A stretch of DNA of 64,000 nt from Escherichia phage vB_EcoM_01: sequence record PP129558; one strand, 5' to 3'. A program made the position numbers and the translations under genes. Shown in pieces: positions 15,007 through 57,136 of this stretch. Within the stretch, counting starts at the first letter, position 1; each line of letters opens with the position of its first letter. The notes under the pieces were generated by a model. The model saw only the letters and a program-made list of their open reading frames with translations. It did not search any database and had not been told where the DNA came from.

Positions 15007-18000
15007 TCAATGACAGGATGCCCAGGAATTACCCACGTCATATCCGGCAGTAAGCTGAACGTTAAGATTGTAAAATTCTCCAGCCTTAGTAACAGCTAAA
15101 GCAGCAAGCTCACCTGCCCGACTATAAGCTGTAAACCATCCACCTTTAGGAGATTCATGAATGTTAGCCCAAATTTGCCCTGTCTCTTTTTCCTTATTAT
15201 GCTTCCATTCTTCAACTTTAGCAAGGCATTCTTTATCAATTTTCTTTTGTTCTTCAGGATCGTCTACTTTCTTCCAACCTAATGATTCAGGTGAAAACCA
15301 TTTAAATTCTACAAGGTTACGAGAAACTTCAAGCTGGGCTTCATCGTGATATGCAATCATTTGTTGCACGAAGTCTTTATTCTTCCAGTCATCTTTAAAG
15401 AAGTCAACACTTAGCCCTTCTTCTTCTATCATGTCGTCATAAATAACCATTGCACGTTTAGCGCAGATAACCCCACCACTTTGGAACAGAGAGTTAAGAA
15501 TCGCGTGAGCAGAACGAGTAGGAACCTTACGACCGTCAATACCCAAAACATACTGTTTACCAGTCTTAACCCAGAAATCGTTTAAACGTTCTTTAAGACG
15601 TGCCAGTGGGAATGCAGCTTCCCAGAAAGCATCAAACACCAATTGACCTGTAAACTTATCGCTACCAATTGTTTTAGCAACCTTGTCGGCTTGTGCACCA
15701 TAGGTAATACCATACTTAACAGATTTAGCAGGACTACGTTCAAATTTACGTCCAATAGTTTCAGTGATACGTTTTGCCATCATTGTGTGAACATCGTTAG
15801 GTTTCTCTAACAACAGAGCGTTACAATATTCATGTGGCTCCGGCTCGTACCGCCAACAGTAGTGTGATTCAATTTTTGCTTCCAAAGAGTCGAAGTCGTA
15901 GCCGATCTGGAAGTATTTAGGCNNGTCTCTTATACACATCTGACGCTGCCGACGACAGACGTGGTGTGTAGATCTCGGTGGTCGCCGTATCATTAAAAAN
16001 NNNNNNNNNNNNNNNNNNNNNNNNNNNNNNNNNNNNNNNNNNNNNNNNNNNNNNNNNNNNNNNNNNNNNNNNNNNNNNNNNNNNNNNNNNNNNNNNNNNN
16101 NNNNNNNNNNNNNNNNNNNNNNNNNNNNNNNNNNNNNNNNNNNNNNNNNNNNNNNNNNNNNNNNNNNNNNNNNNNNNNNNNNNNNNNNNNNNNNNNNNNN
16201 NNNNNNNNNNNNNNNNNNNNNNNNNNNNNNNNNNNNNNNNNNNNNNNNNNNNNNNNNNNNNNNNNNNNNNNNNNNNNNNNNNNNNNNNNNNNNNNNNNNN
16301 NNNNNNNNNNNNNNNNNNNNNNNNNNNNNNNNNNNNNNNNNNNNNNNNNNNNNNNNNNNNNNNNNNNNNNNNNNNNNNNNNNNNNNNNNNNNNNNNNNNN
16401 NNNNNNNNNNNNNNNNNNNNNNNNNNNNNNNNNNNNNNNNNNNNNNNNNNNNNNNNNNNNNNNNNNNNNNNNNNNNNNNNNNNNNNNNNNNNNNNNNNNN
16501 NNNNNNNNNNNATCATTGTGTGAACATCGTTAGGTTTCTCTAACAACAGAGCGTTACAATATTCATGTGGCTCCGGCTCGTACCGCCAACAGTAGTGTGA
16601 TTCAATTTTTGCTTCCAAAGAGTCGAAGTCGTAGCCGATCTGGAAGTATTTAGGAACCTCTACACCAAACAAGTTACGCATCTCCCATCCAAACAAAGAT
16701 GTGACACGAGGAATGTTAGCTACAGACCTATGCTTCATACGAGAGGTTGCAGCATCACATGTAGCTGCTGGGGTAGGAATACGACCATCCGCCCTTACTG
16801 CGGCTAAGAAACCTTTATCGTATTCTTGATCTTCTTCATCTTCTTCCCAATCAGCACCGCCACCTAAAATAGAGTTCCTACGATGCTTATACGTTAAGTA
16901 TTCTACAATCTGTGTAGCATAAGGGAATTTCTCACCCAAAGCTTGCAGGTTAGGACAGATTTCTTTTTCCTGACCTTTGGTAAAACATGGGTTAGTCAAT
17001 ACTTTAAGACCGCGACCTTTACCTTTTGCTATACGCTCTTGAATCTTCCTTTCCAAGGTTTCCGGTGTGCACTCCAGATGATCACAACGGTCCTGACAAA
17101 AATTAGAAGATAAAGTTTGCTCAACGTAAGCTCGAATACCTTTCTGAAGTTCTTCCTCGCTCTTTTTAATCTTGGTGCCAGATTTAAGAGTCAAGTCTTT
17201 ATCTTTATATTCAGACGGTACCCAACCTAATCCTACAAGCCAGTTTTTAATATGGGTTGTATCGTTCAATGTTGCAGGGATGTGAGGATCACATAAAGGC
17301 TCATCTGCTGCAACTGGCAGTTTCCACTCTTTCCCCAACATAACTAACCACCAATCTCCATCCCTCTCTTCCAAATGACCATCATGTTTCTTAGCAAAAT
17401 TGATCATATGGTTAGTTGGCTCTAAGTTCTTTTTAATTTGCAACTTAGGTGGAATAAAAGCCTTAAGATAGCCTTTTGTTGCTGGTTTAGGTGGCAAAAT
17501 AGGCTCAACGAGTAAACGAAGACGCTCCATTTCTGCATCCAAAAAAGCAAGGTTCTCTTCTGCTTGCTTCATGTTAAAAGCAAATCCACGGTGTTCCTGG
17601 CGTGTAATAATGTCTGCTACACGTTGTTCAAGTTCAAATGGACCTTCCCATTTATCATAATCACCCCACTCTTCCATAAGGTAATTATATACGCTTGTAT
17701 TAGCTTTGTTGTCATAGATACAGTAATAAAGCATATCCGCAGCAAAAGTCTTAAATCGATCTTCTTCTGGAATCTCTTTACGGAAATCTATTTTTACATC
17801 ACCACCTGCTTTTCGAGAAAGTGCTGCCAAGCTATGTCCTGATTTGCCCTCAATCTTTCGATCTGGGTTTAACACTTTACTCAAAATCAAGGAGTCAATA
17901 AGTTTTACCTTATTTTTGCCCCACGTATTATATTTAACACTGTAATCTAATCCATAAAACAGTTTTGTAGCCAACCAGTCGTAGTTGATACCGTTGTGAG

Positions 18001-26200: not shown

Positions 26201-26803
26201 TTACGGACATTCATACCATTCTTTTTTACCACCAAAGGCCATCACCACATCACAAATATCCAGACCAGCTTTACCTACACCATATGCTTTCAGCTTCCAT
26301 TCCCCATCTTCACGAACCAAGGAAGCCACGTGGCAGATTGTGTTGCCAGCTACTTCAGGAGCCAGGAAGTCAAAATCCAGAATTTCCACATTGCGCTCGG
26401 AGTCGAAGATTTTAAGCATACCTTCAGAAGCATGACCAAAACGTTTCAGACCTGTATCATCATCAATGGTCAGAACAAAGGCAATCTCTTGTGCGTCAGG
26501 AGAGATTTTAGCCAGAGTAATATCAATCTGCTCCATGCTGCCAGTTCCATCACGAACATCGTCACCAGCGAAGGTAGAACGTTCAGGATCAAACTTGTTA
26601 GCATAGCAAACCAGATGACGTGCAGACAGCATTTCAGGATTGCCAGCGGCATTGTGACGACAAACCAGTGCACTTACATCCAGATCTAGTTTAGAATCAG
26701 ATTTCCAAGAGAATTCCAGGCGCAGTTCTTTCAGAGCCGGAGCAACTTTCTTCAGGGAAATTTTTTCGCTAGAGCCTTTTTTCAGGGAAATTTTATCAGT
26801 CAT
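26201..26803 (-). CDS. terD: TerD-domain protein
   Basis: 200 aa; N-terminal ISLKK repeats, LDLDVSALV, GDDVRDGTGSMEQIDITL, IAFVLTIDD, DGEWKLKAYGVG match conserved TerD blocks. Confidence 0.8.
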   Translation of the reverse strand: MTDKISLKKGSSEKISLKKVAPALKELRLEFSWKSDSKLDLDVSALVCRHNAAGNPEMLSARHLVCYANKFDPERSTFAGDDVRDGTGSMEQIDITLAKISPDAQEIAFVLTIDDDTGLKRFGHASEGMLKIFDSERNVEILDFDFLAPEVAGNTICHVASLVREDGEWKLKAYGVGKAGLDICDVVMAFGGKKEWYECP

Positions 26804-26818
26804 CTTTTGTCTCCTCTA

Positions 26819-27088
26819 TTATTTAAGTGTAATACCAGTTACAGTCAATTCTACTTCCAAAAGCTTAGATGTGTTTTGGATTGATACTAATTGTGCATGA
26901 TGGTTTAGTTCTACAGCAGAATAATCATTTTCCCCATCATCTACTTTTAAATAAACAATGATTTCACTAAGGTCTAAACCATTTTCGTCAAATGCATTTT
27001 CATAAACGAAAGTATCTCCTACATCCAAATCTTTAATGGTAAGGCATCGTTTATTTACTTTTTGCTCATCAATTTCGAAGTTTAACAC
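26819..27088 (-). CDS. small protein, paralogue of 28110-28388
   Basis: 89 aa; shares DLDVG.TF.Y..A.DE.GLD and VEL.VT.ITLK with the other copy. Confidence 0.5.
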   Translation of the reverse strand: MLNFEIDEQKVNKRCLTIKDLDVGDTFVYENAFDENGLDLSEIIVYLKVDDGENDYSAVELNHHAQLVSIQNTSKLLEVELTVTGITLK

Positions 27089-27317
27089 TTCTTCCTCCTA
27101 ATGTTATCTCCGGTTTGTATATACGAAGAATTATAGCATTTTCATTTTCTTTGTCAACCCATTCTTCATAATCAGGCCATACATGAATCTCTACTCTACT
27201 TACAATATCTTCCATTCGCACAGTCCCAATGAAATACTCTTTGAGACTGCGCATAATGAAAGCTTCTCTCTCGCGCCAATAATTTTCTATGACTTGAGAG
27301 GCAAGCTCGTCGATCAT
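27069..27317 (-). CDS. hypothetical protein
   Basis: 82 aa ORF. Confidence 0.45.
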   Translation of the reverse strand: MIDELASQVIENYWREREAFIMRSLKEYFIGTVRMEDIVSRVEIHVWPDYEEWVDKENENAIILRIYKPEITLGGRSVKLRN

Positions 27318-28108
27318 TTTTTAGCACCTACTTTAACAACCCACTCTCCGAACTCTTCAGATAAGAGTTTGTCATAAAGCTCTGAATCTGTCAAGTCTAA
27401 ATCTTTAATGCCAATAAAACCAACATTATCATAAGCATTTGCCAGTTCTTTCAGGAAGCCAAACTTCTCATTACCAACGCCAACCATGAACCAATAAATA
27501 GGTTTATTCTTATTCTCTTCGATAAGACGACGAACAGCACTAGGATCACCATTCTCACCATCAGTCTGGAAGAATACAACACCAGGGGTAACGTCAGCAC
27601 CTGGTTCAGATACAGCTACAACTTTTTCACGCTCTACAGACACTGTTTCAGTTTTACCAAGCAGACGATTAAAGAAGCCTTTCTTTGGAGCCTCCTCTTG
27701 TACCACTTGTTTAGTGGTAATATATTTAGTAACAGTGCCAAAATACTCATCGTAGATATCCGCCATTACAGGGGCGTAATTTGTTCCACCTCCGATACGA
27801 ACATTACGCATACATTTACCAACATAATCGTCGTAAACATCTGCTGTTGCTGGAGTAAGCTCTTGGGAACTCGTATTGAAGGCCCACATATCAATTTGTT
27901 GATTATCGTCGAACAGCATACCAAAAGGAAGCAGTTTACCTACAAAATCACTCACTACCCCACTAGAATATAGACCATGCATACTACCAGAAATATCTAG
28001 AGCACATGCTACACGAAGAACAATCTTACCTTCGTTCAGGTTCTTATTCTTTTTCAGAGAGAAAGCAAGGTTTTCTTGACGTTTTTTCAGGCTGATTTTC
28101 TCGGACAT
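27314..28108 (-). CDS. von Willebrand factor A domain protein (TerY/TerF-like)
   Basis: 264 aa; MIDAS-type motif VACALDISGSM; N terminus carries ISLKK/FSLKK segments like the TerD gene. Confidence 0.65.
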   Translation of the reverse strand: MSEKISLKKRQENLAFSLKKNKNLNEGKIVLRVACALDISGSMHGLYSSGVVSDFVGKLLPFGMLFDDNQQIDMWAFNTSSQELTPATADVYDDYVGKCMRNVRIGGGTNYAPVMADIYDEYFGTVTKYITTKQVVQEEAPKKGFFNRLLGKTETVSVEREKVVAVSEPGADVTPGVVFFQTDGENGDPSAVRRLIEENKNKPIYWFMVGVGNEKFGFLKELANAYDNVGFIGIKDLDLTDSELYDKLLSEEFGEWVVKVGAKK

Positions 28109-28109
28109 A

Positions 28110-28388
28110 TTATTTCTCCTTTTTAAGTGTAATATTGGTAACTTCTAAATCTACTTCCACCATATTTGTATCTGGTGGGATGCAATGAGTATAGCCTCGT
28201 TGTGCTAGTGATCCATTAATACAGATCGCACTGTTTGTGGAATTTTTAATGAACACCAAGTTACGGTAGGTATCCAACCCTGCGTCTTCATAGGCATCAT
28301 AATACATGAATGTGGCCCCTACGTCAAGATCTTCGAAAGCAATAGGTAAATCCTGACTTTTTTCTTCTTGAATATTGAATCTAAACAC
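28110..28388 (-). CDS. small protein, paralogue of 26819-27088
   Basis: Start proposed at GTG 28388 with GAGGAGG RBS (track ORF starts 28454). Confidence 0.45.
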   Translation of the reverse strand: MFRFNIQEEKSQDLPIAFEDLDVGATFMYYDAYEDAGLDTYRNLVFIKNSTNSAICINGSLAQRGYTHCIPPDTNMVEVDLEVTNITLKKEK

Positions 28389-28944
28389 GCATACCTCCTC
28401 TACCAATTTTGAAGCCCAAATCGTAAGCTTCCTTAGTGATCTTTTGTAACTCACTTATAGGAAGTGTTACAAGAGGATCATCTTCTTCAATTTCCATCTT
28501 GTCATCTTCTGTTTCAATGAGAGTATTATGCACTTTGTGATAAGGGTTGTCAACACGTTTAAACTTATTCTTTTCTGTGCTGAAAAAACAATCTGGATCT
28601 TCTTCACCATCACCCCAACCTTGGTTAGGATCTCCGTCAGATTGTTCTGTAGGGATTTCACCTGTAAAGTACTCTTCCAGCACCATAGCAATACCGTCTC
28701 TTGGATTTGAGGAATGCATTAAATCACAAACCTTACCCCAATCCGTAGCCCATTCGAACCGTTCACGAACGCCATTTTCACCCTCTTTTCCAGAGAAAAC
28801 ACAACCATAACTATCATAGTTGCCATACATCTCTTCAATAACAACACCGTCCTTCAAAAGAAAGAGGTAGCAAGGTGATCCGTCGAAAGAAGTAGAAAGG
28901 GCAGCTTTGCCCGATTCTTTGCACAAAAAGCTAAAACAACCCAT
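28381..28944 (-). CDS. hypothetical protein
   Basis: 187 aa ORF, acidic. Confidence 0.5.
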   Translation of the reverse strand: MGCFSFLCKESGKAALSTSFDGSPCYLFLLKDGVVIEEMYGNYDSYGCVFSGKEGENGVRERFEWATDWGKVCDLMHSSNPRDGIAMVLEEYFTGEIPTEQSDGDPNQGWGDGEEDPDCFFSTEKNKFKRVDNPYHKVHNTLIETEDDKMEIEEDDPLVTLPISELQKITKEAYDLGFKIGRGGMRV

Positions 28945-29147
28945 TACAAACCCTCCTTCAGATTATCAAGAGCTACAGTGGTTTCACAAGAGTCTCCATA
29001 AGTTTTATGATGTTCCAGAAAAGCTTCGGGTCCACCCCAGTCATTATCTTGTGTATTCCAGCCATCAATAAAAGCATCTTCAATGATTGTGATCAGTTCT
29101 TGTCGGGTTAACTGGATAATATTAGGATCGTTATCGTAGTTAAACAT
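28944..29147 (-). CDS. hypothetical protein
   Basis: 67 aa ORF. Confidence 0.4.
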   Translation of the reverse strand: MFNYDNDPNIIQLTRQELITIIEDAFIDGWNTQDNDWGGPEAFLEHHKTYGDSCETTVALDNLKEGL

Positions 29148-29312
29148 CTTCTTCCTCCTCTAAAATATGGAACCCGTAATTACAATAATCCTGAAAGGTT
29201 TCGTGCGCAAGATCTTCTATATCCTCTTGAGACATATCATCTTCAATTTCGATATCCACAACCTCATTGCATCCACACCAAGCAGTTTCAATATTCACTC
29301 GTAATATTTTCA

Positions 29313-29513
29313 TTACTCCTCCTCCTCCTCATTGAAGTCAATATCTGCAAGGAGTTCGAATTTACGGAAGTTACGACAACCTTCATAAATATAACAATCA
29401 CGACAAACTGCTAGAACACTTGGGGGATATATACCTCCCATCGGTGCGAATCGTTTTTCGTCATCATAACGGACACCAATGTCTTCATCAATTATATAGA
29501 TACGGATTCTCAT
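29313..29513 (-). CDS. small Cys-rich protein
   Basis: 66 aa; CRDCYIYEGC. Confidence 0.4.
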   Translation of the reverse strand: MRIRIYIIDEDIGVRYDDEKRFAPMGGIYPPSVLAVCRDCYIYEGCRNFRKFELLADIDFNEEEEE

Positions 29514-30622
29514 TTACCAAGCCCTCGTTTCACAGCAGCTACCATCCCGTCTTCCAGAGATTGAACTTCATTAATATAATCAACACGAGCAGCACGGGCT
29601 TCCGTATTGATGCGGTTAGTTTCTTCCAACATCTTAACCAAGTTTTCCTGATCGTGACGCAGAGTTTCAATATCCAACACTTGACGGTTAGCCAGTGCTG
29701 CTGCTTCGATCTGATTTTGTGTGGCAAGATCGCTACCCAGTTTAATTGCCAGGTTAAATTCATCAAGAACGTTATTCTGTGTCTCTGCGGCTTTCATTTG
29801 ACGTAAGCTCTCAATATACATTGAGAAGTTAGCAGAGTAAGCAGGAATAACATTATTCACTATGTTACGCGCAGATCGCATTAAGCTTGCAGAAACTTTT
29901 TGCATACCTTGCACACGTGGTCCCATTTGGACACACAGTAGGCGCAATGCTTTTAAATCCGCAATACGAATCTCCAGAAGATCCAAAGTATCTCGGATCG
30001 CTTGTCGCTGTTCTACCGCATCTTCTGGAAGAGCAGCCAAAGCTTGTTCTTCTTTTTCGTAGGTTGCTGTTAGAAGCTGCATATCTCGGTTCAAACTTGC
30101 AGCATATTGTCCAATAGCTTGATGTAGCTTTTCAAGATATACCAAGGAATCTTCTTCTTTGCGAATATCCATTTGAAGGTTCTTTACCAACTCTTCAATA
30201 CGGTTATTAACATTATCAAACTCCCCAAACAGGTCTTCTTTCATACCCATAACTTTTTTAATGAGTTTAGTAATACCTTTGCTTTGTTTAATAGAGTTTG
30301 GATCAAGTTGTTTTGCCTGTTTAATCAAAGCTGTGAGTCGTTCACTCATCTGATCGCCTTGATTACTACGTTGATGTTTTAATACCTCGGCATTCAAGGA
30401 ACGCAAGGTTGTTCCTGCCTCTGCCCCGATCTCTTCGATCTCTTGTCGTGTCATAGAAGGCAAAACTGGGACTTCTTGCGGTGCGGCTGGTGCATAAACA
30501 GGACTGGCATCTAACACGCTTGGAGCAAATACAGATTTACTTGCATCTGTTGTTGCAGTGAATACACTGATTTCAGACTTCTTCTGACCACCAGTAGCTG
30601 CTTTTAAAAACGGACTTGTCAT
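29510..30622 (-). CDS. telA: TelA/KlaA-like (toxic anion resistance family) protein
   Basis: 370 aa, largely helical/coiled, overall resemblance to TelA family; lies with TerD, vWA and TerC genes. Confidence 0.55.
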   Translation of the reverse strand: MTSPFLKAATGGQKKSEISVFTATTDASKSVFAPSVLDASPVYAPAAPQEVPVLPSMTRQEIEEIGAEAGTTLRSLNAEVLKHQRSNQGDQMSERLTALIKQAKQLDPNSIKQSKGITKLIKKVMGMKEDLFGEFDNVNNRIEELVKNLQMDIRKEEDSLVYLEKLHQAIGQYAASLNRDMQLLTATYEKEEQALAALPEDAVEQRQAIRDTLDLLEIRIADLKALRLLCVQMGPRVQGMQKVSASLMRSARNIVNNVIPAYSANFSMYIESLRQMKAAETQNNVLDEFNLAIKLGSDLATQNQIEAAALANRQVLDIETLRHDQENLVKMLEETNRINTEARAARVDYINEVQSLEDGMVAAVKRGLGK

Positions 30623-31209
30623 TCTTCATTCTCCTCTTCTGCATCTCTTATGTATGGTGAAACACCGTATTCTTTAGCTACTTTAATCCAATCGTCCCAT
30701 TTATACAACCATAATTTTCCTTCTGTTCCTTCTTTATCTGATTTTAACCACATATTAGGTTGCTTACCTGGATACATGCGATTAGGTTTACGATTATACC
30801 CTCTAACACATCTTGTCGCAAACCTATCCACCAAAACAAGAACATATTTATATTCATGGTTCAACGGCTCTTTGGAAGTAGCTTTAGGGTTTGCCCCTAA
30901 TTCTGCTGCCAGTTTTTGCCAATGAGCACCGTGCCGACTAAACTTACCCATACAACCATCAATAGCATGAGCAATTTCGTGCTTCATTGTATCCACGATC
31001 ATATCTCTTGTAGAGTTCTTATGCAAGTGCCAATTTACAACAACAATTTTATCTCGGTAGTTGCACCAACCGAAAGAGTTATTCACTTTGTTTCTAACGC
31101 AAGCTTTATATCCTGCTTCACGTAACATGTTGTAGTAAACAGGAAAATCTTCTTTTATTTCCTGCATCACTTCCCACCACAAGAGTTGCAAGTCTCTCTC
31201 GGTATACAT
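30619..31209 (-). CDS. SprT-like zinc metallopeptidase-fold protein
   Basis: 196 aa; HEIAHAIDG (HExxH) followed by Cys/His cluster. Confidence 0.45.
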   Translation of the reverse strand: MYTERDLQLLWWEVMQEIKEDFPVYYNMLREAGYKACVRNKVNNSFGWCNYRDKIVVVNWHLHKNSTRDMIVDTMKHEIAHAIDGCMGKFSRHGAHWQKLAAELGANPKATSKEPLNHEYKYVLVLVDRFATRCVRGYNRKPNRMYPGKQPNMWLKSDKEGTEGKLWLYKWDDWIKVAKEYGVSPYIRDAEEENEE

Positions 31210-31212
31210 AAC

Positions 31213-31806
31213 TTACACCTTAAAAGTGAAATGCGTGGTCGTGGCTTCAAAATCAGGGCCAGATAAACGTGCACTGAAATCTGAAATATTTGTAATTAAA
31301 AAGCTTTTATGCATACCCAACACAGCCACGCTTTCAATATCTTCTACTAACATTTCAATCATGTTAGAAACATGGCTGAACGTAGTGTTTTGTTTTTTGA
31401 TGGTGTAGAAAGAAAGATTCCCACCTGCTGTATAAGATACTTCTTCAAAATCTTTAATCGTATACTGTGTCCCATCAGTAAAGAAAATGGTAGCTTTATT
31501 AGTAGCACGTTTCTTGTTTTTTGGTCCTTTTTTACGTTTACTGCGAGTAGGAAAACCATTTGGGAATACCGTAGCTACAAATTCTTCAGGAGAAACCTCC
31601 TTACCGAAATCATAACCATAAGAAACAGCATCTATAAACTCATCGTCCTCATTTTTAAAATAATGAAAATAGGGCCAATTTGACAGGTTATCAAGCATCT
31701 TGTGCTCATCCACAGCAGAGAACGTATCCCTCAAAGCACGTGTGATTTGCAAAGCATTAGGCAACCTTTTAACACCTACGATGGAAGTACGAATAGAAAT
31801 TGTCAT
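31213..31806 (-). CDS. hypothetical protein
   Basis: 197 aa ORF. Confidence 0.5.
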   Translation of the reverse strand: MTISIRTSIVGVKRLPNALQITRALRDTFSAVDEHKMLDNLSNWPYFHYFKNEDDEFIDAVSYGYDFGKEVSPEEFVATVFPNGFPTRSKRKKGPKNKKRATNKATIFFTDGTQYTIKDFEEVSYTAGGNLSFYTIKKQNTTFSHVSNMIEMLVEDIESVAVLGMHKSFLITNISDFSARLSGPDFEATTTHFTFKV

Positions 31807-31820
31807 TATTTTTCTCCTTA

Positions 31821-32258
31821 TTAACGTCGCTTGCTACGAGATGAACTCTTTTTACTTAAAGGACTATTGTAAGATTTACGAGTTGTATAGCTGCTATTTG
31901 TTTTAAAAGTTTGTCTCGGCTTTTCATAAGTTTTTATCTCTTGTTTAGGCTTACCATAAAAATTAGTTTTCGGTTTAGGTGTGTTATAATGTTTATTAAT
32001 AATCGTTCTGTTATCGTTATAATCCCCGCCGCTACGATTACTACCACCGCTCATCATATGTCCTAACAACATACCTGTAGCAAACTCACCAACACCGCTA
32101 CTACTAGAACCGCCACCATTGTTGATAATAGTTGTATCTCCGTCAGATCCTTGTTGAGTGTATTGTTGAGGAGGTTGTTGATATTGTGTAGGATTTGTTT
32201 CATCCTCGCAAGCTGTTAAAAAGATACAACCAATTAAAATCAGGGCTAGTTTTTTCAT
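31821..32258 (-). CDS. Gly/Ser-rich lipoprotein
   Basis: Start at ATG 32258 (MKKLALILIGCIFLTAC: signal peptide plus lipobox) with GAGGAAAG RBS. Confidence 0.5.
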   Translation of the reverse strand: MKKLALILIGCIFLTACEDETNPTQYQQPPQQYTQQGSDGDTTIINNGGGSSSSGVGEFATGMLLGHMMSGGSNRSGGDYNDNRTIINKHYNTPKPKTNFYGKPKQEIKTYEKPRQTFKTNSSYTTRKSYNSPLSKKSSSRSKRR

Positions 32259-32441
32259 ATTTGCTTTCCTCGTTTTGACTATTAATACATCTGTGTTTGA
32301 AATCTCCAGAGAAGCAATAAAGCTGCTCTCCATCTCGGTATAAACTCACTTTACTGCCGTTGATTACGCTTGTCAATACAAAAATTACAACAAACAACCC
32401 TATTGCAAAACAAATATTTTCAAACACAACCAACAAGTATT

Positions 32442-32792
32442 TCATTTTAAAAATACCTCATCATCAGTTTCATTATCCCAGAAGAACAAATCCCAACCAT
32501 TAGGATCATTCCACTTGGCGGCTGGAGAAGTCCAGATTTGTTCGATATCAATATTCAAAACTTCGCCGTTTCGTTTTGAAACAGCCTTGGTTAATTCCCA
32601 ACGAGATACAGGTTCTACCTCTCCTGAACCACTTCCACAACAAGCTACTACGTTAGGAGGAAGGTTAATTGGATCTTTGGTCACAATCATAACGCTTACC
32701 CCAGGGTAAACTTTTGAAAGATAATCTGAAACGTAATCAACATCACCAGGTAAATCCCAAACAAGTTTTTGAATTTCATCAAAATTACTCAT
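32442..32792 (-). CDS. hypothetical protein
   Basis: 116 aa ORF. Confidence 0.5.
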   Translation of the reverse strand: MSNFDEIQKLVWDLPGDVDYVSDYLSKVYPGVSVMIVTKDPINLPPNVVACCGSGSGEVEPVSRWELTKAVSKRNGEVLNIDIEQIWTSPAAKWNDPNGWDLFFWDNETDDEVFLK

Positions 32793-32800
32793 AAGTCTCT

Positions 32801-32828
32801 CCTATAAAATAGCCTCCCGAAGGAGGCT
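32801..32828 (-). terminator. rho-independent terminator after terC
   Basis: gcctcc-ttcg-ggaggc hairpin followed by TATTTTAT on minus strand. Confidence 0.5.
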
Positions 32829-32834
32829 CATCTA

Positions 32835-33809
32835 TTAAACAGTAGCTTCTTCTTTTTCAGGGAAGATAAAGCTTGCAATAACACCAAGAGCTAATGTGCC
32901 TAGAACAATCATCAGACTTACGTTAGGGGAAATATCATGCGGGAGGAATGACCACTTGGCATGAAGTGTTTCACCGAACGGGTGATACATAAGTTTAGCA
33001 CCAACAAACACCAGAACCACAGCAACAGCTTTCTCTAAGTGAACCAAATATTTCACAGCTACACTTAACACAAAGAAAAGTGCACGTAAACCAAGAACAG
33101 CCATCAGCATTGCAGAATAAACTAGCAGAGGTTCTTGTGTCACACCGATCACAGCCGGAACTGAATCAAAAGAGAAGACAATATCTGTAAGCTCAATAAC
33201 AAACACACAAAGAAGAGCAGGAGTTGCATATTTAATACCATTCTTAATGGTAATGAACTTTTCACCATCCAGTGCATTGTGCACAGGCAGAACTTTACCT
33301 ACTAAACGAACAGCCCAATGCTTAGAGTAATCAATATCCTCTTCTTCGTCACCACCTTTGATGATAGCCACGGCAGACCAAGCTACAATCAAACCGAACA
33401 ACACTTGGACCGACCAATGAAGGTTAAACAAAGCGGTCCCTGCTGCAACAAAAATACCTCGGAAGACAATGGCTCCTGCAATCCCCCAAAGTAAAATCTT
33501 ATGTTGGAGATGTGTGCTCTTAATTCCAAAGCTTGCAAAAATTGCCATGAACACCATCAGGTTATCTACAGAAAGACTCTTTTCCAACACATAGCCACTT
33601 AGGAAAAGCGCGGCAAACTCTTTACCATGTTCTACCCAAATGAATGCGTAATATCCTAAAGCTAAAGCAATCCAAAAAACAGACCAAAGCAAAGCAGATT
33701 TAATTCCAATTTCTTTATTCTCTTTATGACCAAAGAAATCGATACCAATAGACAATGCTAAAATACCAACTAAAACAACTACATCAATAATTGGGAAACC
33801 AAGTTGCAT
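32835..33809 (-). CDS. terC: TerC-family integral membrane protein
   Basis: 324 aa, multiple TM helices; hallmark SGYVLEKSLSVDNLMVF motif. Confidence 0.8.
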   Translation of the reverse strand: MQLGFPIIDVVVLVGILALSIGIDFFGHKENKEIGIKSALLWSVFWIALALGYYAFIWVEHGKEFAALFLSGYVLEKSLSVDNLMVFMAIFASFGIKSTHLQHKILLWGIAGAIVFRGIFVAAGTALFNLHWSVQVLFGLIVAWSAVAIIKGGDEEEDIDYSKHWAVRLVGKVLPVHNALDGEKFITIKNGIKYATPALLCVFVIELTDIVFSFDSVPAVIGVTQEPLLVYSAMLMAVLGLRALFFVLSVAVKYLVHLEKAVAVVLVFVGAKLMYHPFGETLHAKWSFLPHDISPNVSLMIVLGTLALGVIASFIFPEKEEATV

Positions 33810-33826
33810 TCTTTTCTCCTCTCTTT

Positions 33827-33885
33827 GCGGGGAACTATTCCCCGCTTCATGTGATATATCTTACTCTTTTTAAGAACTATGTCAA
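33827..33885 (-). promoter_or_regulatory. promoter plus 5' hairpin module upstream of terC (same architecture as the 55.7-59.9 kb array)
   Basis: minus strand: TTGACA-16 nt-TAAGAT-atatcacatga-GCGGGGAA tagt TTCCCCGC-RBS-ATG. Confidence 0.55.
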
Positions 33886-33888
33886 CAC

Positions 33889-34110
33889 TTATTTTGTTGA
33901 ATGAGAGGAAAAGATTCCTCGTAATACAGCCAGAATAAACGAAACACAAACCACGGTCCAGAAGGTTACTGGAACAGTGATATCTGCATGACCCATAACT
34001 TCAGCAACATAGTTGTAAGCCAGCAACAGTAACCAAGCTGGAATCAAACTAAGCATAAAAGCAATAACAAAAAAGCTTACCACTGCAACAATACCTGCAA
34101 AAACACCCAT
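33889..34110 (-). CDS. small membrane protein (two TM helices)
   Basis: 73 aa, two hydrophobic helices. Confidence 0.5.
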   Translation of the reverse strand: MGVFAGIVAVVSFFVIAFMLSLIPAWLLLLAYNYVAEVMGHADITVPVTFWTVVCVSFILAVLRGIFSSHSTK

Positions 34111-34122
34111 ACTAATCTCCTC

Positions 34123-34608
34123 TTAAAGTTTATAAATAGTCACATCGTGACCAGCTTTTACTAAAGTTTCTTTGATCATGACTTCAATGATAGCCCAATT
34201 ACCTCCAGCATGACCTGCACCTATCATAGGTAGACCAATCTTATGTGCTGGTTGATCTCCTTTATCGTAATTGTGTAAGTCCATTGCCATAGCTGCAAGA
34301 GCATCATATAGCGCATCATAATCTAGTTGACGACCTTTACTATTGTATCCATAACGATACTGTCCATAAAGGTTGTATACCATAGGGTTAGGATAATCTT
34401 CTGGTTCCCCTAAACTAAAAGAACCAAGCTTTTTCTGGTTTCCTGCTCCTGTAGCTAAATCTGCTTCGTATGCATATGGAAACGCATATTTTATTTGTGG
34501 GGCAATACCTGCCCCCATATTACACATACAGTTGCAACAATGAGCAATAACAGTTACTTCACCTGCTTTAGCGGCATCAATAAGATTACCTGTTTTCATT
34601 TTAAGCAT
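34123..34608 (-). CDS. macro-domain protein (ADP-ribose binding/processing)
   Basis: VIAHCCNCMCNMGAGIA and LPMIGAGHAGGNW resemble macro-domain Gly-rich loops; start at ATG 34608 with AAGGAG RBS (track ORF extends to 34713). Confidence 0.55.
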   Translation of the reverse strand: MLKMKTGNLIDAAKAGEVTVIAHCCNCMCNMGAGIAPQIKYAFPYAYEADLATGAGNQKKLGSFSLGEPEDYPNPMVYNLYGQYRYGYNSKGRQLDYDALYDALAAMAMDLHNYDKGDQPAHKIGLPMIGAGHAGGNWAIIEVMIKETLVKAGHDVTIYKL

Positions 34609-34621
34609 TTTTAGCTCCTTA

Positions 34622-35284
34622 TTACAGAACATGTTGTTTTGTGTAACGATCCAAGAATTCAAAGTTTTCAGCATACTTTGAAATTCGGTTGTAACCTTCT
34701 CCCAAACATCCAAAGAAAAGTTGCTCTACATAGTAGTGTGGCAATTGGCTAAGAATGATTTTGAAGTCTTCGTGATTTTGGCCCATAAGATACTTAATAG
34801 GACGAACAAGGCACTGTGCATCACGTTCTTCATTAATCATTTTAACAAACGCTTCTGGTGTATTAATATAATTAAAATTCAGTTTAGCTTCGGTATCTGC
34901 TTGATTACCTTCATATTTTGCAAAATACAAGAAGTAAACATCATTTTTAACTTGATTTTCATCAAGGATCTCAATCAGTTTGTCTTCATGAGTTCCAGTG
35001 ATATTTACATCATCAATAAACACAAGCTTCTTATCACCCCAGAATTCTTTGTTGCAGTAGAATGTATCCCCATCAATAAGTTTCTTACGACTAGCTTTAT
35101 CCAAGAAACCATAATCGTTGATATAGCTAACTTTACGATGAATAATATCCAGTTCTGCTGAACGACCTTGGTCATATTGTGATTGCAACATATTAAAGTA
35201 ATTAATAAAATGATCTGTCATCATTGTTGCAGCATTATGCACATGGTTGTAAGGAGAAGGAATGATAACAAATTGTTCCCCCAA
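34622..35284 (-). CDS. phosphoribosyltransferase (type I PRTase fold); N terminus uncertain
   Basis: KKLVFIDDVNITGTHEDK is a PRPP-binding motif; track start is TTG; upstream ORF 35235-35450 could be the true N terminus via a shift at a G5 run. Confidence 0.65.
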   Translation of the reverse strand: MGEQFVIIPSPYNHVHNAATMMTDHFINYFNMLQSQYDQGRSAELDIIHRKVSYINDYGFLDKASRKKLIDGDTFYCNKEFWGDKKLVFIDDVNITGTHEDKLIEILDENQVKNDVYFLYFAKYEGNQADTEAKLNFNYINTPEAFVKMINEERDAQCLVRPIKYLMGQNHEDFKIILSQLPHYYVEQLFFGCLGEGYNRISKYAENFEFLDRYTKQHVL

Positions 35285-35442
35285 TATGTTTCATTGCTAC
35301 TTGAGCAAAAAACTGAAGTGCCAATTCTTTACCCATACGACGCGCAGCTTGGTTACTACCAAATTTCAATTTTGAATAATCTTGGATATCAAAAGTAGCA
35401 GTTTCCAGATCATCAAATTTATTTGCAAAAATTTGAGTTTGA

Positions 35443-36099
35443 TTACGCATTTACAATTTCTCCTCTTTTAAGTTTCTCTAGTAAGTCGTTAGGGTTCTTA
35501 ATATGACAGAAGTTAAATCCTAAGTCAACACATTTTCCATCATATTCTTCACTATCGCCTACGTGCAATACTTCGTGCCCTAACAGAGGGATCGGAGAAT
35601 ACGTGAGCGTGCGAGCAAAGAATCGCGGATCTGGTTTACAAAGTAAAGCTTCATCTGAGAAATGGGTGAACTCAAAACAATTCCAACTATCAAACTTACA
35701 AGCACGACGCAGGATATCCCCTGATATGAAGTTGGTATTGCTCTTAATACTCAAATCATAACGCCCCGAAAGATACAGCAAGTACATCGGCAGATCCACG
35801 GCTACGTGTGGTGGAAACTTAAGGAACCACTGTTCACACTCGAAACGAAGCTTTGCAGACTTCCAAGGCGTTATCCCAAGTTCAGAACCAAGTCTTTCCC
35901 AAGCGTATGCTGCACACTCGGCTTTGCCTTGAAGTGCTGCATTATCCAGTTCCTTTTTGATCTTTTTATAAGCTGCTCTTGCTTCCACTTCCGTAATATC
36001 TCCATATTTTGCGATAGTCCAGGCTCGCATGTCTGCGTAATTGGAGTTTGCTGTGATCAGTGTGTTCCATACATCAAAAGAGATATGTTTAATAGTCAT
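35443..36099 (-). CDS. HAD-superfamily hydrolase
   Basis: 218 aa; motif I ISFDVWNTLI, motif III KPDPRFF, motif IV HVGDSEEYD. Confidence 0.7.
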   Translation of the reverse strand: MTIKHISFDVWNTLITANSNYADMRAWTIAKYGDITEVEARAAYKKIKKELDNAALQGKAECAAYAWERLGSELGITPWKSAKLRFECEQWFLKFPPHVAVDLPMYLLYLSGRYDLSIKSNTNFISGDILRRACKFDSWNCFEFTHFSDEALLCKPDPRFFARTLTYSPIPLLGHEVLHVGDSEEYDGKCVDLGFNFCHIKNPNDLLEKLKRGEIVNA

Positions 36100-36100
36100 A

Positions 36101-36706
36101 TTAAGCCCACCATGCGTCTAAGTTAAGATTACTGTCCACTACCACTTGTTCTATGTGGTAGCCTTTTATCTGTATCCCACTGTTCAAGAGCATATCATAC
36201 GCTTCATTGAAACGCAACTTATCTTCTGCGGAATATAAGCGAGCATTATAAAATCGGTAATCAATTTCTTCAGCATTAGAAGAAATACGGAAGAAGTTTG
36301 TTTCTACTTCGGGATCACTTGCTGAAGTCTTAATGTGAACTTCTCCGTAATTTTCTTTACTTAGATCCATGAAAAGAACACAGGCAACATGTTTAAACAT
36401 TCGTTCCAGTTTGTAACGAACAACATTGAAACCTGCATTCTCAAGTTTTTCTACACACTGCAACATTAAAGTAGTGTCGAGATCGCTTTGATACTTTGTT
36501 AACATACGATCACGTTGAGACTTTGTATCCCGATGTAAATCAATTGTTGTGCATTTGGCACCAATAATCTTAGCTGCTTTCATCAACTCTTCAGAACTAA
36601 CGTTAGATAAAGTAAGATGAAAATGGGCTTTCCACACTTTTTTAGCAGGGACACCAAAAGATTTATCCCCACTATTCGGCATGTTGACTACTACACTATG
36701 TTGCAT
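36101..36706 (-). CDS. hypothetical protein (weak 2H phosphoesterase-like signature)
   Basis: 201 aa; HFHLTL and VHIKTS as possible H-x-T/S-x pairs; weak. Confidence 0.4.
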   Translation of the reverse strand: MQHSVVVNMPNSGDKSFGVPAKKVWKAHFHLTLSNVSSEELMKAAKIIGAKCTTIDLHRDTKSQRDRMLTKYQSDLDTTLMLQCVEKLENAGFNVVRYKLERMFKHVACVLFMDLSKENYGEVHIKTSASDPEVETNFFRISSNAEEIDYRFYNARLYSAEDKLRFNEAYDMLLNSGIQIKGYHIEQVVVDSNLNLDAWWA

Positions 36707-36721: not shown

Positions 36722-36946
36722 TTAAAATGGAAGTCTTTGAAGTTCATCTCCTCCGATATCAAGTAATTTAGCAACATCTCGATCAGAAAGCAACTCTTTT
36801 CTTTGTAAAATATCCACAAGGGTTGCAAGAATGTCCTTAACGTCCCGATCACTGTTCTTCAAAAGTTCTCCTGCCGTCCCTACTCTATCTCCTACAGCAA
36901 AATATGTAACCATGAAACCTCCTAAGTTAATCTGATTGCCAACCAC
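36722..36946 (-). CDS. hypothetical small protein
   Basis: 74 aa ORF. Confidence 0.35.
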   Translation of the reverse strand: MVGNQINLGGFMVTYFAVGDRVGTAGELLKNSDRDVKDILATLVDILQRKELLSDRDVAKLLDIGGDELQRLPF

Positions 36947-37397
36947 TTGCCGTTTTGGTCCATAATCTTTGATTATCTGACCCTCTGAAAGGTTTTGTAG
37001 TTGGATTGTTTATTTCATACTTTCCGTCTACAATAATGTCAACAAGATTTTTAATATACAAAGGCACTTCCTCAAAAGTATATCCTGTATACACCATTAT
37101 ATCTTTGCTTGACCCATAAACGTCTCTAACCTTTTCTATAAGGTTTTTAACATTGTAAATATTCTGCGGATCTAATGGCTCTCCTCCTAAAATTGTTAAA
37201 CCTTTTACAAACGGTCTTGACAAATCTTTTAAAACTTGCTCTACATTTTCGTGAGTAAACGGTTTCCCGTAAGAATAAGACCAGGCTTTTTGGTTAAAAC
37301 AGCCACGACAACCGTGGCTACAACCACTAACCCAGAGGGAGCACCTAACTCCCTCGCCATTAATAAGATCTACAGGTTCATATCCTGCAAAATTCAA
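36927..37397 (-). CDS. nrdG: anaerobic ribonucleotide reductase activating protein (radical SAM)
   Basis: 156 aa; CSHGCRGC cluster; immediately downstream of nrdD-like gene. Confidence 0.8.
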   Translation of the reverse strand: MNFAGYEPVDLINGEGVRCSLWVSGCSHGCRGCFNQKAWSYSYGKPFTHENVEQVLKDLSRPFVKGLTILGGEPLDPQNIYNVKNLIEKVRDVYGSSKDIMVYTGYTFEEVPLYIKNLVDIIVDGKYEINNPTTKPFRGSDNQRLWTKTASGWQSD

Positions 37398-39208
37398 AGA
37401 TGTTTCTCCCTTTGCAAAACTTCCTGCATTTTACCTTTGTTGTAAGGGCGTGAATTAGGGGCAGAAAGATACCCTGACACACGTCTAACTACAGAAATAG
37501 TTTCTTCTTCATGGTTGCCACAATCAGGACACTCAAACCCTTTAGCCGTTGCCTTAAATTCTCCATGAAAACCACACTTAAAGCATTGATCCACGGGCTG
37601 ATTAATACCAAAATAGTGAATATGTTCATAAGCGTAGTCTACTAAAGTCTCCAAAGCTTCTAAGTTATTCTTTAAGTTTGGTGTTTCGACATAACTTATG
37701 TTACCACCATTGCTAATCTGTGCAAAACCTGCTTCATAATCCCATTTTTCAAAAGGATTTGTTACCAACCATACAGGTTGATGAAAAGAATTAGTAAGAT
37801 AATCTCTTTCTACCAGACCTGGATATTTTTCATTTAAAGCTGTTGCAAATTTATAGCACAAGGATTCTGCTGGAGTTCCATAAAGACTAAATGCCAACTT
37901 AGATCGTTCTTTAAACACAGCACACACATCTTTCATATGTTGCAGAATGTTTTTACCTAGTTCCTTTTTATCTTTTTCCTCTGGATAAAGGATTTCCAAA
38001 GCTTCGGCAAGACCTACATAACCAATACTAATAGAAGCATAACCACCTTCAAACAAAGCACCAATTTCATCGTTGGCATTTAAACGCGCTAAAGCCCCTT
38101 CCATGAAAAGAATAGGGTTTTCAGATGCTTTGGTATGTCTGATACGGTTTACACGTAGCATGTGAGCATCGTAGGCTATCTCCATATGTTTATTAAGAAG
38201 ATCGGTGAAAGATTCTCCTTTACTTCTCGCTTCCGCAGCAATCAGAGGCAAGTTGATAGAAACTACTCCAAGGTTGAATCGTCCATCATATTTTTCTCCT
38301 TGTTCGGTGGCATAGTACGACAAAAAGGAACGACAACCCATGCTCGTAACAGTACCATCTGCTGATCCCGTAACTTCTTTGTTCAAAGGAACAGAAATAA
38401 AGTCTGGATAAATACGATCAGCACAACATGCCAAAGCTTGTTGCTTAAGGTCATAGTTAGGATCACTAGGTTTCATGTTAACGCCTTCTTGTAAAAAGAA
38501 AATAACTTTAGGGAATACAGGCGTTACATGATCTTTGCCTAGACCATTACTATGCACTTTAAGATAGTTAGCTGTGATCATTCTGCCAAAAACAGAGGTA
38601 TCCAGACCCATACTGATTGTAATAAAAGGAGATTGTCCATTTACACTCATTAAAGTATTAACCTGATACAAGAGAGTTTGCATAGCATCATATACATCTT
38701 GTTCGGTCATTTCCAGGGCTTCTTTCCTTGCATAACAGCCGTAGCGACGTTTGGTTATCTCCATGTTTTTAAGGAAACTAGCTTCAACATAAGGACTAAG
38801 ACCTTTATCAATGTGCGCACACGTTTGACCTCCATACTGACTGGAGGCAACAGCTTGAATGATTTGAGTTAGCACTGTAGTAGCTACCCCAATAGATTTT
38901 GGTTTTTCTATCTGTGCGGCTCCGATCTTAAAACCATTCTCTAACATATCTTGATAATTAACAAGACAACAGTTTGTAAGAGGAGAGAGCAGATAATCCA
39001 AGTCGTGAATATGCCCAAAACCTTCTGTATGCCATTCTGACAAGTTTTTTGGCAGTATCTGTGTCATTGCCATATGTTTGCTTAAAATCCCCGCCAAGAG
39101 ATCCCTATGTGTGTTAACGAGGTGGGAAGGTTTGTTTGCATTCTCTCTAGTGTATGTTTCTGAAGTGCGATCTAAAAAAGAAAAAACATCTTGGTACAAA
39201 TCTTTCAT
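37394..39208 (-). CDS. nrdD: anaerobic ribonucleoside-triphosphate reductase
   Basis: 604 aa; C-terminal CFKCG...CPDCG zinc site and RRVSGYL glycyl-radical-like motif. Confidence 0.8.
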   Translation of the reverse strand: MKDLYQDVFSFLDRTSETYTRENANKPSHLVNTHRDLLAGILSKHMAMTQILPKNLSEWHTEGFGHIHDLDYLLSPLTNCCLVNYQDMLENGFKIGAAQIEKPKSIGVATTVLTQIIQAVASSQYGGQTCAHIDKGLSPYVEASFLKNMEITKRRYGCYARKEALEMTEQDVYDAMQTLLYQVNTLMSVNGQSPFITISMGLDTSVFGRMITANYLKVHSNGLGKDHVTPVFPKVIFFLQEGVNMKPSDPNYDLKQQALACCADRIYPDFISVPLNKEVTGSADGTVTSMGCRSFLSYYATEQGEKYDGRFNLGVVSINLPLIAAEARSKGESFTDLLNKHMEIAYDAHMLRVNRIRHTKASENPILFMEGALARLNANDEIGALFEGGYASISIGYVGLAEALEILYPEEKDKKELGKNILQHMKDVCAVFKERSKLAFSLYGTPAESLCYKFATALNEKYPGLVERDYLTNSFHQPVWLVTNPFEKWDYEAGFAQISNGGNISYVETPNLKNNLEALETLVDYAYEHIHYFGINQPVDQCFKCGFHGEFKATAKGFECPDCGNHEEETISVVRRVSGYLSAPNSRPYNKGKMQEVLQREKHL

Positions 39209-48191: not shown

Positions 48192-48305
48192 TTGTTTTCT
48201 CCTTTTGTTTGGTAGGAGTTGATCTTAACAAGATTAAAAAGTATGTCAATACTTGATCTGAAATTATTTTCAGGTATCATGTATGAACATTAACAAGAGA
48301 GGTAG
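48192..48305. promoter_or_regulatory. strand-switch intergenic region with probable divergent promoters
   Basis: Divergent gene starts at 48191 (-) and 48306 (+); AT-rich, repeated TTGATCT, short dyad gatcttaacaagat. Confidence 0.4.
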
Positions 48306-55693: not shown

Positions 55694-55699
55694 AAAGTA

Positions 55700-55758: not shown

Positions 55759-55783
55759 TCGTAACAGAAGAGAGATTATCATC

Positions 55784-56056: not shown

Positions 56057-56059
56057 GGC

Positions 56060-57127: not shown

Positions 57128-57136
57128 AAAATATTC

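Follow-up and report, generated by a model that had tools for sequence, protein, structure and literature searches.

A phage-adapted, abbreviated Ter gene system is probably encoded beside nrdDG in Escherichia phage vB_EcoM_01

Few bacterial stress or “resistance” genes without an agreed mechanism are as widespread as the Ter genes, and their occurrence in strictly lytic phages has drawn comment for more than 10 years. What would a lytic phage gain from carrying them? The question is raised by a block of about 10 kb on the minus strand of Escherichia phage vB_EcoM_01 (sequence record PP129558), at positions 26201–36706 of the 64,000-nt stretch analysed here (the window). We read the composite block as a phage-adapted, abbreviated six-gene Ter system that would exclude superinfecting phages or colicins, or protect the envelope of the infected cell, together with lineage-specific additions, and we hold this reading with somewhat more belief than doubt. 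The six core genes are as follows.

26201–26803, minus strand: TerD-domain protein of 200 aa (Pfam PF02342, E 3e-28, above the curated cut-off)
27314–28108, minus strand: TerF-type vWA protein of 264 aa (Pfam PF10138, vWA-TerF-like, E 2e-37, above the cut-off)
29510–30622, minus strand: TelA of 370 aa (Pfam PF05816, E 1e-33, above the cut-off; phrog_5890, “tellurite resistance”)
32835–33809, minus strand: TerC/Alx-family membrane protein of 324 aa (Pfam PF03741, E 3e-40, above the cut-off)
34622–35450, minus strand: PRTase_3 (ComF-like) phosphoribosyltransferase (PRTase), 275 aa when intact (Pfam PF15610 on both of its pieces)
35443–36099, minus strand: HAD-superfamily hydrolase of 218 aa (NCBIfam HAD-IA subfamilies; PDB 2om6, E 8e-5; weak in Pfam)

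An initial annotation of the window had proposed these genes, together with macrodomain, SprT-like and 2H-like genes, as a Ter module with nucleotide-processing enzymes. All of them are minus-strand open reading frames (ORFs) where it had placed them, and profile searches support TerD, TerC, TelA and the PRTase through Pfam and the HAD and macrodomain proteins through other searches. TerD also matches the solved structure of Klebsiella TerD (2kxt, E 1.5e-15), and TerC reaches 319 bits against a cut-off of 246 for NCBIfam TIGR03718 (TerC/Alx family metal homeostasis membrane protein); for TelA, no solved relative was found in the PDB by sequence. The vWA protein had been described as TerY-like. 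Its vWA domain is clear, and its translation shows the DxSxS MIDAS motif as DISGS, but the protein is of the TerF type. It matches none of the PADLOC defence models, and hence not the TerY-P model if the PADLOC library includes one, and no kinase or phosphatase domain of a TerY-P triad was found in the block by Pfam scans.

With TerD, TerC, TelA and a TerF-type vWA protein, and with a PRTase and a HAD hydrolase linked to them, the block has the composition of a Ter stress-response system in the sense of Anantharaman, Iyer and Aravind. It is not a classical terZABCDEF operon: Pfam scans of 20 block ORFs (with a stricter threshold only for the overlapping ORFs of 81 aa and 73 aa) found no TerB and a single TerD-domain gene, and such partial ter sets are considered unlikely to confer tellurium resistance (PMC9796965).

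More than 50 complete phage genomes match the 10.5-kb region over its whole length at 95–97% nucleotide identity (phAPEC8, ZCKP1, ESCO13 and EF1-1 among them), and a second group, Justusliebigvirus, matches it at lower nucleotide identity. On the basis of these matches, we assign the window to Phapecoctavirus (Stephanstirmvirinae), virulent E. coli myoviruses of ∼150 kb. Records labelled as Acinetobacter, Campylobacter and Pseudomonas phages share 97% identity with this E. coli phage genus or are close relatives of it, and these host labels are probably wrong or the result of contamination; one contig of a “Proteobacteria bacterium” metagenome-assembled genome (MAG) is this phage as well. A SleB-type cell-wall hydrolase is encoded downstream of the block. 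Directly upstream and on the same strand lie the genes of the anaerobic ribonucleotide reductase, which had been noted initially as neighbours of the block.

36927–39208, minus strand: nrdG and nrdD (Pfam NRDD, E 2e-164; Gly_radical; Fer4_12/Radical_SAM)

The core is syntenic in Phapecoctavirus and Justusliebigvirus. Justusliebigvirus, represented by BASEL phage Bas60, keeps the gene order at 50–81% protein identity (81% for TerD) and reads nrdD, nrdG, HAD, PRTase, macrodomain gene, small membrane protein and TerC, followed further downstream by TelA, a 187-aa protein, a phrog_11278 protein, vWA and TerD.

Is the association of Ter genes with the two enzymes confined to this subfamily? With iterated profile searches, we collected PRTase_3 loci for comparison, 24 in all, among annotated phages, IMG/VR and assemblies. 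The HAD gene lies directly upstream of PRTase_3 in all 24. In 7 of the 15 lineages outside Stephanstirmvirinae, TerD, vWA and TelA, with or without TerC, are found within a few kilobases of the pair and in varied orders, and three of these lineages share a compact operon with the order TerC, X, TerD, Y, vWA, HAD and PRTase. Judged by its hhalign match to TelA (probability 69%, E 4e-5, 273 columns), X is a probable divergent TelA; the corresponding comparison of TelA with Y (Y311, between TerD and vWA) was not significant. Among 50,697 phage records, PRTase_3 occurs in 156, TerD in 148 and TelA in 224. Since each family is thus present in only ∼0.3–0.4% of the records, the repeated linkage is not due to chance. 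The same holds for the clustering in the block itself, because Justusliebigvirus keeps the order and because Ter genes recur beside HAD–PRTase_3 in unrelated phage contigs.

By these sequence comparisons, TerC, TelA, TerD, vWA, HAD and PRTase_3 form a recurrent six-gene phage Ter core. The proposal of a Ter module with nucleotide enzymes is therefore borne out for these six genes and does not extend to the remaining ones. The SprT-like gene and the gene for a 201-aa protein (the “2H-like” gene) are absent from Justusliebigvirus, and the macrodomain gene adjoins PRTase only in Stephanstirmvirinae, in both genera; judging from this distribution, all three are local, lineage-specific additions.

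The PRTase had been placed at 34622–35284. Its identity holds (PF15610, E 1e-32), but the gene encodes 275 aa, and of these the coordinates cover just the C-terminal 220. The N-terminal part, of the same Pfam family, is a 71-aa ORF in another frame (35235–35450), and alignment with EF1-1 shows that the two are separated by a +1 frameshift, the window having one G more than EF1-1 in a G-run (C5 on the plus strand, 35278–35282). The 275-aa protein is matched over at least 80% of its length in 156 of the 156 phage records that hold the gene, and every phage record among the matches listed gives a single unbroken match. It should be noted that the window is an uncleaned draft scaffold. It contains many N runs (e.g., 16000–16511, 52107–52502, 59249–59303, 60299–60429 and 61337–62283), it carries Illumina Nextera transposase and P5 adapter sequence twice within the contig, beside N runs (15925–15999 and 63768–63844), and exact duplications of 143–150 nt stand on either side of gaps (15779/16512, 59094/59304 and 60149/60430). 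Single-base differences between the window and its relatives are therefore to be distrusted, and the frameshift is probably an assembly error.

The PRTase translation shows an invariant phosphoribosyl pyrophosphate (PRPP) loop, VFIDDVNITGTH. This loop is also the only part that the profile matched in the PDB (to HGPRT, E 0.24), with no likeness to Nampt or another NAD-salvage PRTase, so that the substrate cannot be deduced from these matches. The HAD assignment is backed, despite the weak Pfam match, by NCBIfam, by Pyrococcus 2om6 and by conserved motifs: when distant homologues are aligned, none departs from the nucleophile Asp, the Lys or the acidic residues of motif IV. In motif I, the window protein and its phage homologues all have D-V-W-N-T, which places a Trp at position Asp+2, as in 2om6. 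Since this Trp replaces the general acid, simple nucleotide phosphatase chemistry is not assured, and the sequence suggests that the reaction may differ from that of ordinary HAD phosphatases.

The two enzymes also occur alone, in phages (Xanthomonas phage XaC1, Rhizobium and Brevundimonas phages and several metagenomic phages) and on Rhizobiaceae plasmids, which makes their coupling to Ter genes optional. From its distribution, HAD–PRTase_3 is an autonomous two-gene cassette, often though not always coupled to Ter proteins. A plasmid search found the pairs on large conjugative plasmids of Sinorhizobium and Rhizobium, 36–40% identical and with no annotated Ter genes nearby; one lies within a cluster of glycosyltransferase, radical-SAM and epimerase genes, and another has a HAD gene of double length. 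In XaC1 (L003 12941–14527), the pair is followed not by Ter genes but by a 528-aa protein with DUF2828 and DUF7788, a different partner for the same enzyme pair. A pattern scan of 185,579 species genomes for PRTase relatives matched one MAG contig only and is uninformative for bacteria, because that contig is the phage itself.

This distribution bears on an alternative in which HAD–PRTase_3 and the macrodomain form a cassette of their own, for counter-defence or salvage involving nucleotides, NAD or ADP-ribose, that merely lies near Ter genes in this subfamily. Apart from the solitary pairs, such a cassette would agree with the macrodomain gene after PRTase in both Stephanstirmvirinae genera, with an NMNAT/Nudix gene after PRTase in Rhizobium phages (L004 5862–6425), and with a PnuC-like transporter and a NadR-like (AAA_28) gene that lie 2–3 kb downstream of the Ter–HAD–PRTase operon in a metagenomic phage contig (L007 13029–14612) and correspond to the recently published NARP3 (PMC13464706). 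It is, however, at odds with the seven independent lineages in which the pair immediately adjoins vWA, TerD or TelA in differing arrangements, and the macrodomain gene is not adjacent to the pair outside the subfamily. The lack of likeness to NAD-salvage PRTases and PF15610 itself, which we take to be a family defined from Ter neighbourhoods, also speak against this alternative, and we consider it quite unlikely.

How is such a block expressed? A clear signal is found at terC, which is bracketed by two features.

33810–33900, minus strand: host-type promoter TTGACA-N16-TAAGAT with an A-rich upstream element, a leader hairpin and the terC ribosome-binding site
32811–32828, minus strand: intrinsic-terminator-like hairpin with a T-run directly after terC (AGCCTCCTTCGGGAGGCT, then ATTTTAT)

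The 80-nt gap upstream of terC contains, in order, the A-rich element, TTGACA, 16 nt, TAAGAT, TATCACAT, an 8-bp GC hairpin and the ribosome-binding site. As the initial annotation had recognized, terC has this module in common with an array of small genes: seven copies of the same architecture are found in the plus-strand array at 55685–59824. Across the window, TTGACA-N16-TANNAT is found 9 times, where 0.4 would be expected. A further member of the family lies at 48222–48249 on the minus strand. Such modules precede many small early-type genes as well as terC. The phAPEC8 record of 2012 already labels the terC promoter a “putative host dependent promoter”. With its own promoter, hairpin and terminator, terC is thus a self-contained unit under a host-type promoter. 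Two additional sigma70-like candidates, at 27157 and 28553, were rejected: they are consensus hexamers inside ORFs, lack the hairpin module and may be chance matches, since the overall promoter count (49) is not above the shuffled expectation (41 ± 8.5). We also rejected control of an Alx/TerC protein by a riboswitch. The terC leader folds into one stable hairpin of 8 bp (dG −14.6 kcal/mol, z −4.7), and no yybP-ykoY Mn2+ riboswitch was matched in Rfam at the gathering threshold or at E ≤ 1.

The early and separate transcription of terC that the promoter module implies is one of several points in favour of a role in metal homeostasis, in which TerC would be an Alx-like Mn2+/Ca2+ exporter, TerD and the vWA protein would be cation-binding buffers, and the block would adjust divalent-metal levels in the infected cell to serve phage metalloenzymes, or would limit metal toxicity, without excluding competitors. 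TerC lies above the cut-off of the NCBIfam metal homeostasis family, TerD belongs to a Ca2+-binding family (the 2kxt match), the vWA protein has a MIDAS motif, and the block adjoins ribonucleotide reductase genes. Nevertheless, of the reductase proteins, NrdD works through a glycyl radical and NrdG carries Fe-S, and neither is Mn-dependent. The missing Mn2+ riboswitch and a degenerate Ca2+ motif in TerD (see below) also argue against metal homeostasis, which leaves the recurrent linkage to HAD–PRTase_3 and TelA unexplained. We therefore regard it as unlikely.

The remaining genes with a recognizable family are the three lineage-specific additions.

34123–34608, minus strand: macrodomain protein of 161 aa, TARG1/SCO6735/DarG-like (PDB 5e3b, E 3e-12; below the Pfam cut-off)
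30619–31209, minus strand: SprT-like HExxH metalloprotease-like protein (Pfam PF10263, E 4e-9, above the cut-off; HEIAH in the translation)
36101–36706, minus strand: 201-aa protein of the AbiEii-partner family (“AbiEi” in PADLOC), an orphan in the phage

The first two had been identified as such at the outset, and both assignments stand. Although sub-threshold in Pfam, the macrodomain protein matches solved macrodomains; it is closest to SCO6735 and BT1257, followed by TARG1 and DarG (TaqDarG 5m31, E 4e-5). NCBIfam and PADLOC DarG models cover the macrodomain part only (E 1e-8 and 1e-9). Asn26, equivalent to Asn22 of TaqDarG, is conserved, whereas the equivalent of Lys80 is not kept and aligns to Tyr/Arg. 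The protein lacks the C-terminal domain that binds DarT in DarG, as do AdfM-type orphans. AdfM is an experimentally established phage DarG2-like macrodomain (PMC13309987), and orphan anti-DarT enzymes of phages have been published (PMC11825919 and PMC13309987). From its sequence, an AdfM-like role against DarT2 is possible for the macrodomain protein, and equally a role in protein de-ADP-ribosylation. AdfM is the correct precedent here; AdfB of ICP1, which was also considered, is not described as a macrodomain protein and has low identity to DarG. The macrodomain gene is 81% identical to that of EF1-1 (L001 11918–12391), and the flanking genes are 99–100% identical. This difference suggests a patch of mosaic exchange or recombination, or else diversifying selection.

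The 201-aa protein had been proposed as possibly 2H-like. Fold searches give no support for a 2H phosphoesterase (a 2H fold with two H-x-T/S motifs), and the protein is instead a homologue of the AbiEii-partner family, a reassignment that may be the one piece of this analysis that is new. Two PADLOC models named AbiEi match it along almost the entire length of the models (E 5e-13); it has no match in Pfam, including the AbiEi winged helix-turn-helix families, in NCBIfam or among PDB sequences. The predicted fold consists of two ferredoxin-like repeats. Only 34 close homologues were found, and a profile search of 1.84 billion representative proteins gave 261 relatives, most of them stand-alone proteins of 170–210 aa. 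Some carry N-terminal fusions, to NUDIX (P0195, P0202 and P0207), HD_4 (P0168), Ham1-like (P0302) or HTH (P0297) domains, and the NUDIX, HD_4 and Ham1 fusions suggest an enzymatic or nucleotide-binding role rather than that of a DNA-binding repressor. Fold relatives are also encoded by other phages, including Acinetobacter phage vB_AbaM_ME3, and by giant eukaryotic viruses (Klosneuvirus, Yasminevirus, Bodo saltans virus and Fadolivirus). Taken with the fusions, several of which are to nucleotide-pyrophosphatase or hydrolase domains, the giant-virus relatives hint at a nucleotide-directed function.

On contigs of cellular type, the 201-aa homologue and the gene downstream of it, of 480–705 aa, overlap in all four loci whose sequence extends far enough. 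Two of these loci have Pfam annotation, in which the downstream gene encodes AbiEii (PF08843) and T4 Rnl1-like RNA-ligase domains, and it is homologous in the other two. The two-gene cassette (metagenomic contigs L030 7001–9441, L031 1893–4015, L034 5923–8717 and L035 591–3148) has the look of an AbiE variant not described before. Caspase-like Peptidase_C14 genes and an Endo_dU gene surround it in L030. A cellular partner protein is 30% identical to the 201-aa protein over 202 residues (BLAST, E 1e-14), and BLAST found no AbiEii homologue in the window. Because its cellular homologues are partners of AbiEii genes and the window has none, the phage gene is an orphan homologue of the gene in the antitoxin position, and it may reasonably be proposed as an antitoxin mimic, in parallel with the published orphan anti-DarT enzymes. 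In another phage contig, a 36%-identical homologue adjoins Acb1 and lies near NADAR.

The macrodomain and 201-aa genes both look like antitoxin-mimic counter-defence genes. An islet close to nrdG can be imagined in which the 201-aa orphan would neutralize AbiE-type nucleotidyltransferase immunity, perhaps enzymatically, the macrodomain would reverse ADP-ribosylation, and HAD–PRTase_3 would supply a nucleoside-like ligand that drives the Ter membrane module; we offer this as a doubtful possibility only. If it were true, the 201-aa protein would be the first recognized phage-borne orphan of an uncharacterized antitoxin family that partners AbiEii–RNA ligase toxins and has members in jumbo phages and giant eukaryotic viruses.

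That two antitoxin-like genes flank the block, suggesting a counter-defence neighbourhood, raises the question of whether the Ter core itself is directed against the host. It might stabilize the inner membrane against depolarizing or permeabilizing abortive-infection effectors, and not against other phages. Homologues of TelA, TerC and TerD do belong to envelope-stress operons (the UP17 record labels its TerD gene yceD, general stress protein 16U), and the distant homologue of the 201-aa gene beside Acb1 and NADAR points in the same direction. On the other hand, none of the Ter genes matches PADLOC or an anti-defence family, and the published hypothesis for phage Ter systems (PMC7824862) favours superinfection exclusion. 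We judge this explanation to be highly improbable.

Small proteins are interleaved with the genes described so far.

26819–27088, minus strand: small protein, phrog_11278 paralogue a, directly upstream of terD (PHROG E 7e-45)
28110–28385, minus strand: small protein, phrog_11278 paralogue b, directly upstream of the vWA gene (PHROG E 5e-50)
28381–28944, minus strand: conserved 187-aa protein inside the block (phrog_14928), syntenic and 76% identical in Justusliebigvirus
33889–34110, minus strand: hydrophobic (membrane-like) protein of 73 aa between the macrodomain gene and terC (phrog_16065)

In bacterial TerF, the TerD and vWA domains are fused; here, each of the two genes is preceded by a phrog_11278 paralogue, of which paralogue b is 65% identical in Justusliebigvirus. 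The 187-aa protein has no Pfam or PADLOC match, and the 73-aa protein is syntenic and 60% identical in Justusliebigvirus. A 170-aa ORF at 31821–32333, conserved in Justusliebigvirus, has a lipoprotein-like signal, MKKLALILIGCIFLTAC, after an internal Met, and its tail is basic and rich in Gly and Ser; its sequence indicates that the product is probably a small lipoprotein.

How could the six core proteins work together? The best-supported model joins the comparative-genomic scheme of PMC7824862 to the anatomy described here. PRTase_3 would couple PRPP to a base, and the HAD enzyme would remove the 5′-phosphate to give a nucleoside-like small molecule. The soluble proteins TerD (from a Ca2+-binding family), vWA (with its MIDAS site) and TelA may act with TerC, an Alx/TerC-type divalent-metal membrane protein, at the inner membrane, where terC expression would be switched on from its own early promoter of the host sigma70 type. 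In this way, the Ter proteins would shift the infected cell to an altered ion and envelope state. The phage would most likely benefit by excluding superinfecting phages and colicins or, more broadly, by protecting the infected envelope. Plasmid ter clusters offer a parallel, since phage inhibition and colicin resistance are cited as their phenotypes (PMC6141743 and PMC8386662). While domain identities, synteny, recurrent linkage and the promoter module are shown by the sequence comparisons, we infer the metabolite, the membrane mechanism and the benefit to the phage.

Several observations weigh against this reading. No terZAB, terE/TerB, ATP-grasp or C–C lyase biosynthetic genes were detected in the block by Pfam scans. 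HAD–PRTase_3 has no Ter genes nearby in 8 of the 15 lineages outside the subfamily or on the Rhizobiaceae plasmids. The Ca2+-site motif of TerD, GDN.TG.GDGDDE, is degenerate and reads GDDVRDGTGSME in the phage, with GTGSME in place of GDGDDE, so that part of the acidic ligands is kept and part is lost. The HAD enzyme lacks the general acid at Asp+2, and the PRTase is frameshifted in the window; if the frameshift is real, this isolate is without the metabolite arm. A recognizable promoter is present at terC only, with no comparable signal found for the other block genes. Finally, the role of phage ter genes during infection has been called unknown (PMC9796965), and our literature search found no experiment on any phage Ter gene.

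The block itself is already known, from routine annotation and from published comparative genomics. GenBank and RefSeq records of the genus carry the labels “tellurite resistance”, “TelA-like”, “TerC”, “TerD family”, “VWA domain-containing”, “putative phosphoribosyltransferase”, “HAD”, “putative macrodomain protein” and “SprT-like”. Four tellurite resistance genes were discussed in 2018 for ZCKP1, a 96%-identical relative of the window, and colicin resistance and superinfection protection were proposed (PMC6141743). Phage Ter systems with PRTase and HAD, and the superinfection-exclusion hypothesis, were described by Iyer, Anantharaman, Krishnan, Burroughs and Aravind in 2021 (PMC7824862), with Acinetobacter phage vB_AbaM_ME3 and Caulobacter jumbo phages as examples and with mention of “certain other related smaller tailed phages”. 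The novelty that the initial annotation had left open for the block is therefore not upheld; the genes are routinely annotated, but they are not functionally explained. What our analysis adds is the quantified six-gene linkage, the split into core and accessory genes, the frameshift with its draft caveat, and the reassignment of the “2H-like” gene.

Compared with the systems of PMC7824862, the components (TerC, TerD, TerF-type vWA, TelA and the “signal biosynthesis” PRTase and HAD) and the proposed role in competition with superinfecting phages are the same, and ME3 shares a structural relative of the 201-aa protein. In contrast to the jumbo phages, the carrier here is a ∼150-kb non-jumbo myovirus of Stephanstirmvirinae, the block spans ∼10 kb with interleaved small lineage-specific genes, terC has its own early transcription unit, and macrodomain, SprT-like and AbiEii-partner-like genes are added. 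The lytic phages phiKp34 (Klebsiella) and phiPsa374 (Pseudomonas) have TerC–TerD–TerF(vWA)–TelA clusters (PMC8386662 and PMC9796965), the same four Ter families as in ZCKP1 and in the window, although TelA of the phiPsa374 type is only ∼22% identical to ours. The HAD–PRTase_3 pair, the terC promoter unit and the accessory genes are not discussed in the papers on these three phages.

Bacterial Ter, yceCDEFGH and klaA–telA–telB loci, including terZABCDEF of plasmid R478 with its phage-inhibition and colicin-resistance phenotypes, have homologous TerD, TerC, TelA and TerF-vWA proteins and, as here, a Ter-associated PRTase and HAD arm for a “nucleoside-like metabolite”. Unlike in these loci, TerB, TerA, TerZ, TerE, ATP-grasp, C–C lyase and the TerY–kinase–phosphatase triad were not detected in the phage block, the Ca2+ motif of TerD is degenerate, and the carrier is a virulent phage and not a cell. 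The macrodomain and 201-aa genes resemble AdfM and the NADAR-type anti-DarT1 factors in being antitoxin-like without a toxin, but the phage macrodomain is closer to SCO6735, BT1257 and TARG1 than to DarG2, with the DarG Asn22 equivalent kept and that of Lys80 lost. With the AbiE type IV toxin–antitoxin system (AbiEi/AbiEii), the 201-aa protein shares the PADLOC AbiEi matches and the antitoxin position of its cellular homologues; it differs in having predicted ferredoxin-like repeats without a Pfam AbiEi match, and the partner toxin in cells is an AbiEii–RNA ligase fusion.

A specialist will not be surprised by the observation itself, and the interest remains in the mechanism of the Ter proteins. 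The lineage includes the BASEL members Bas60 PaulScherrer, EmilieFrey and JohannJBalmer. Since it infects E. coli K-12 and carries the complete six-gene core, it is a convenient test system for the Ter proteins and the product of PRTase_3 and HAD. It could show what TerC, TerD, TelA and the vWA protein do, what PRTase_3 and HAD make, and whether that product signals to the Ter proteins.

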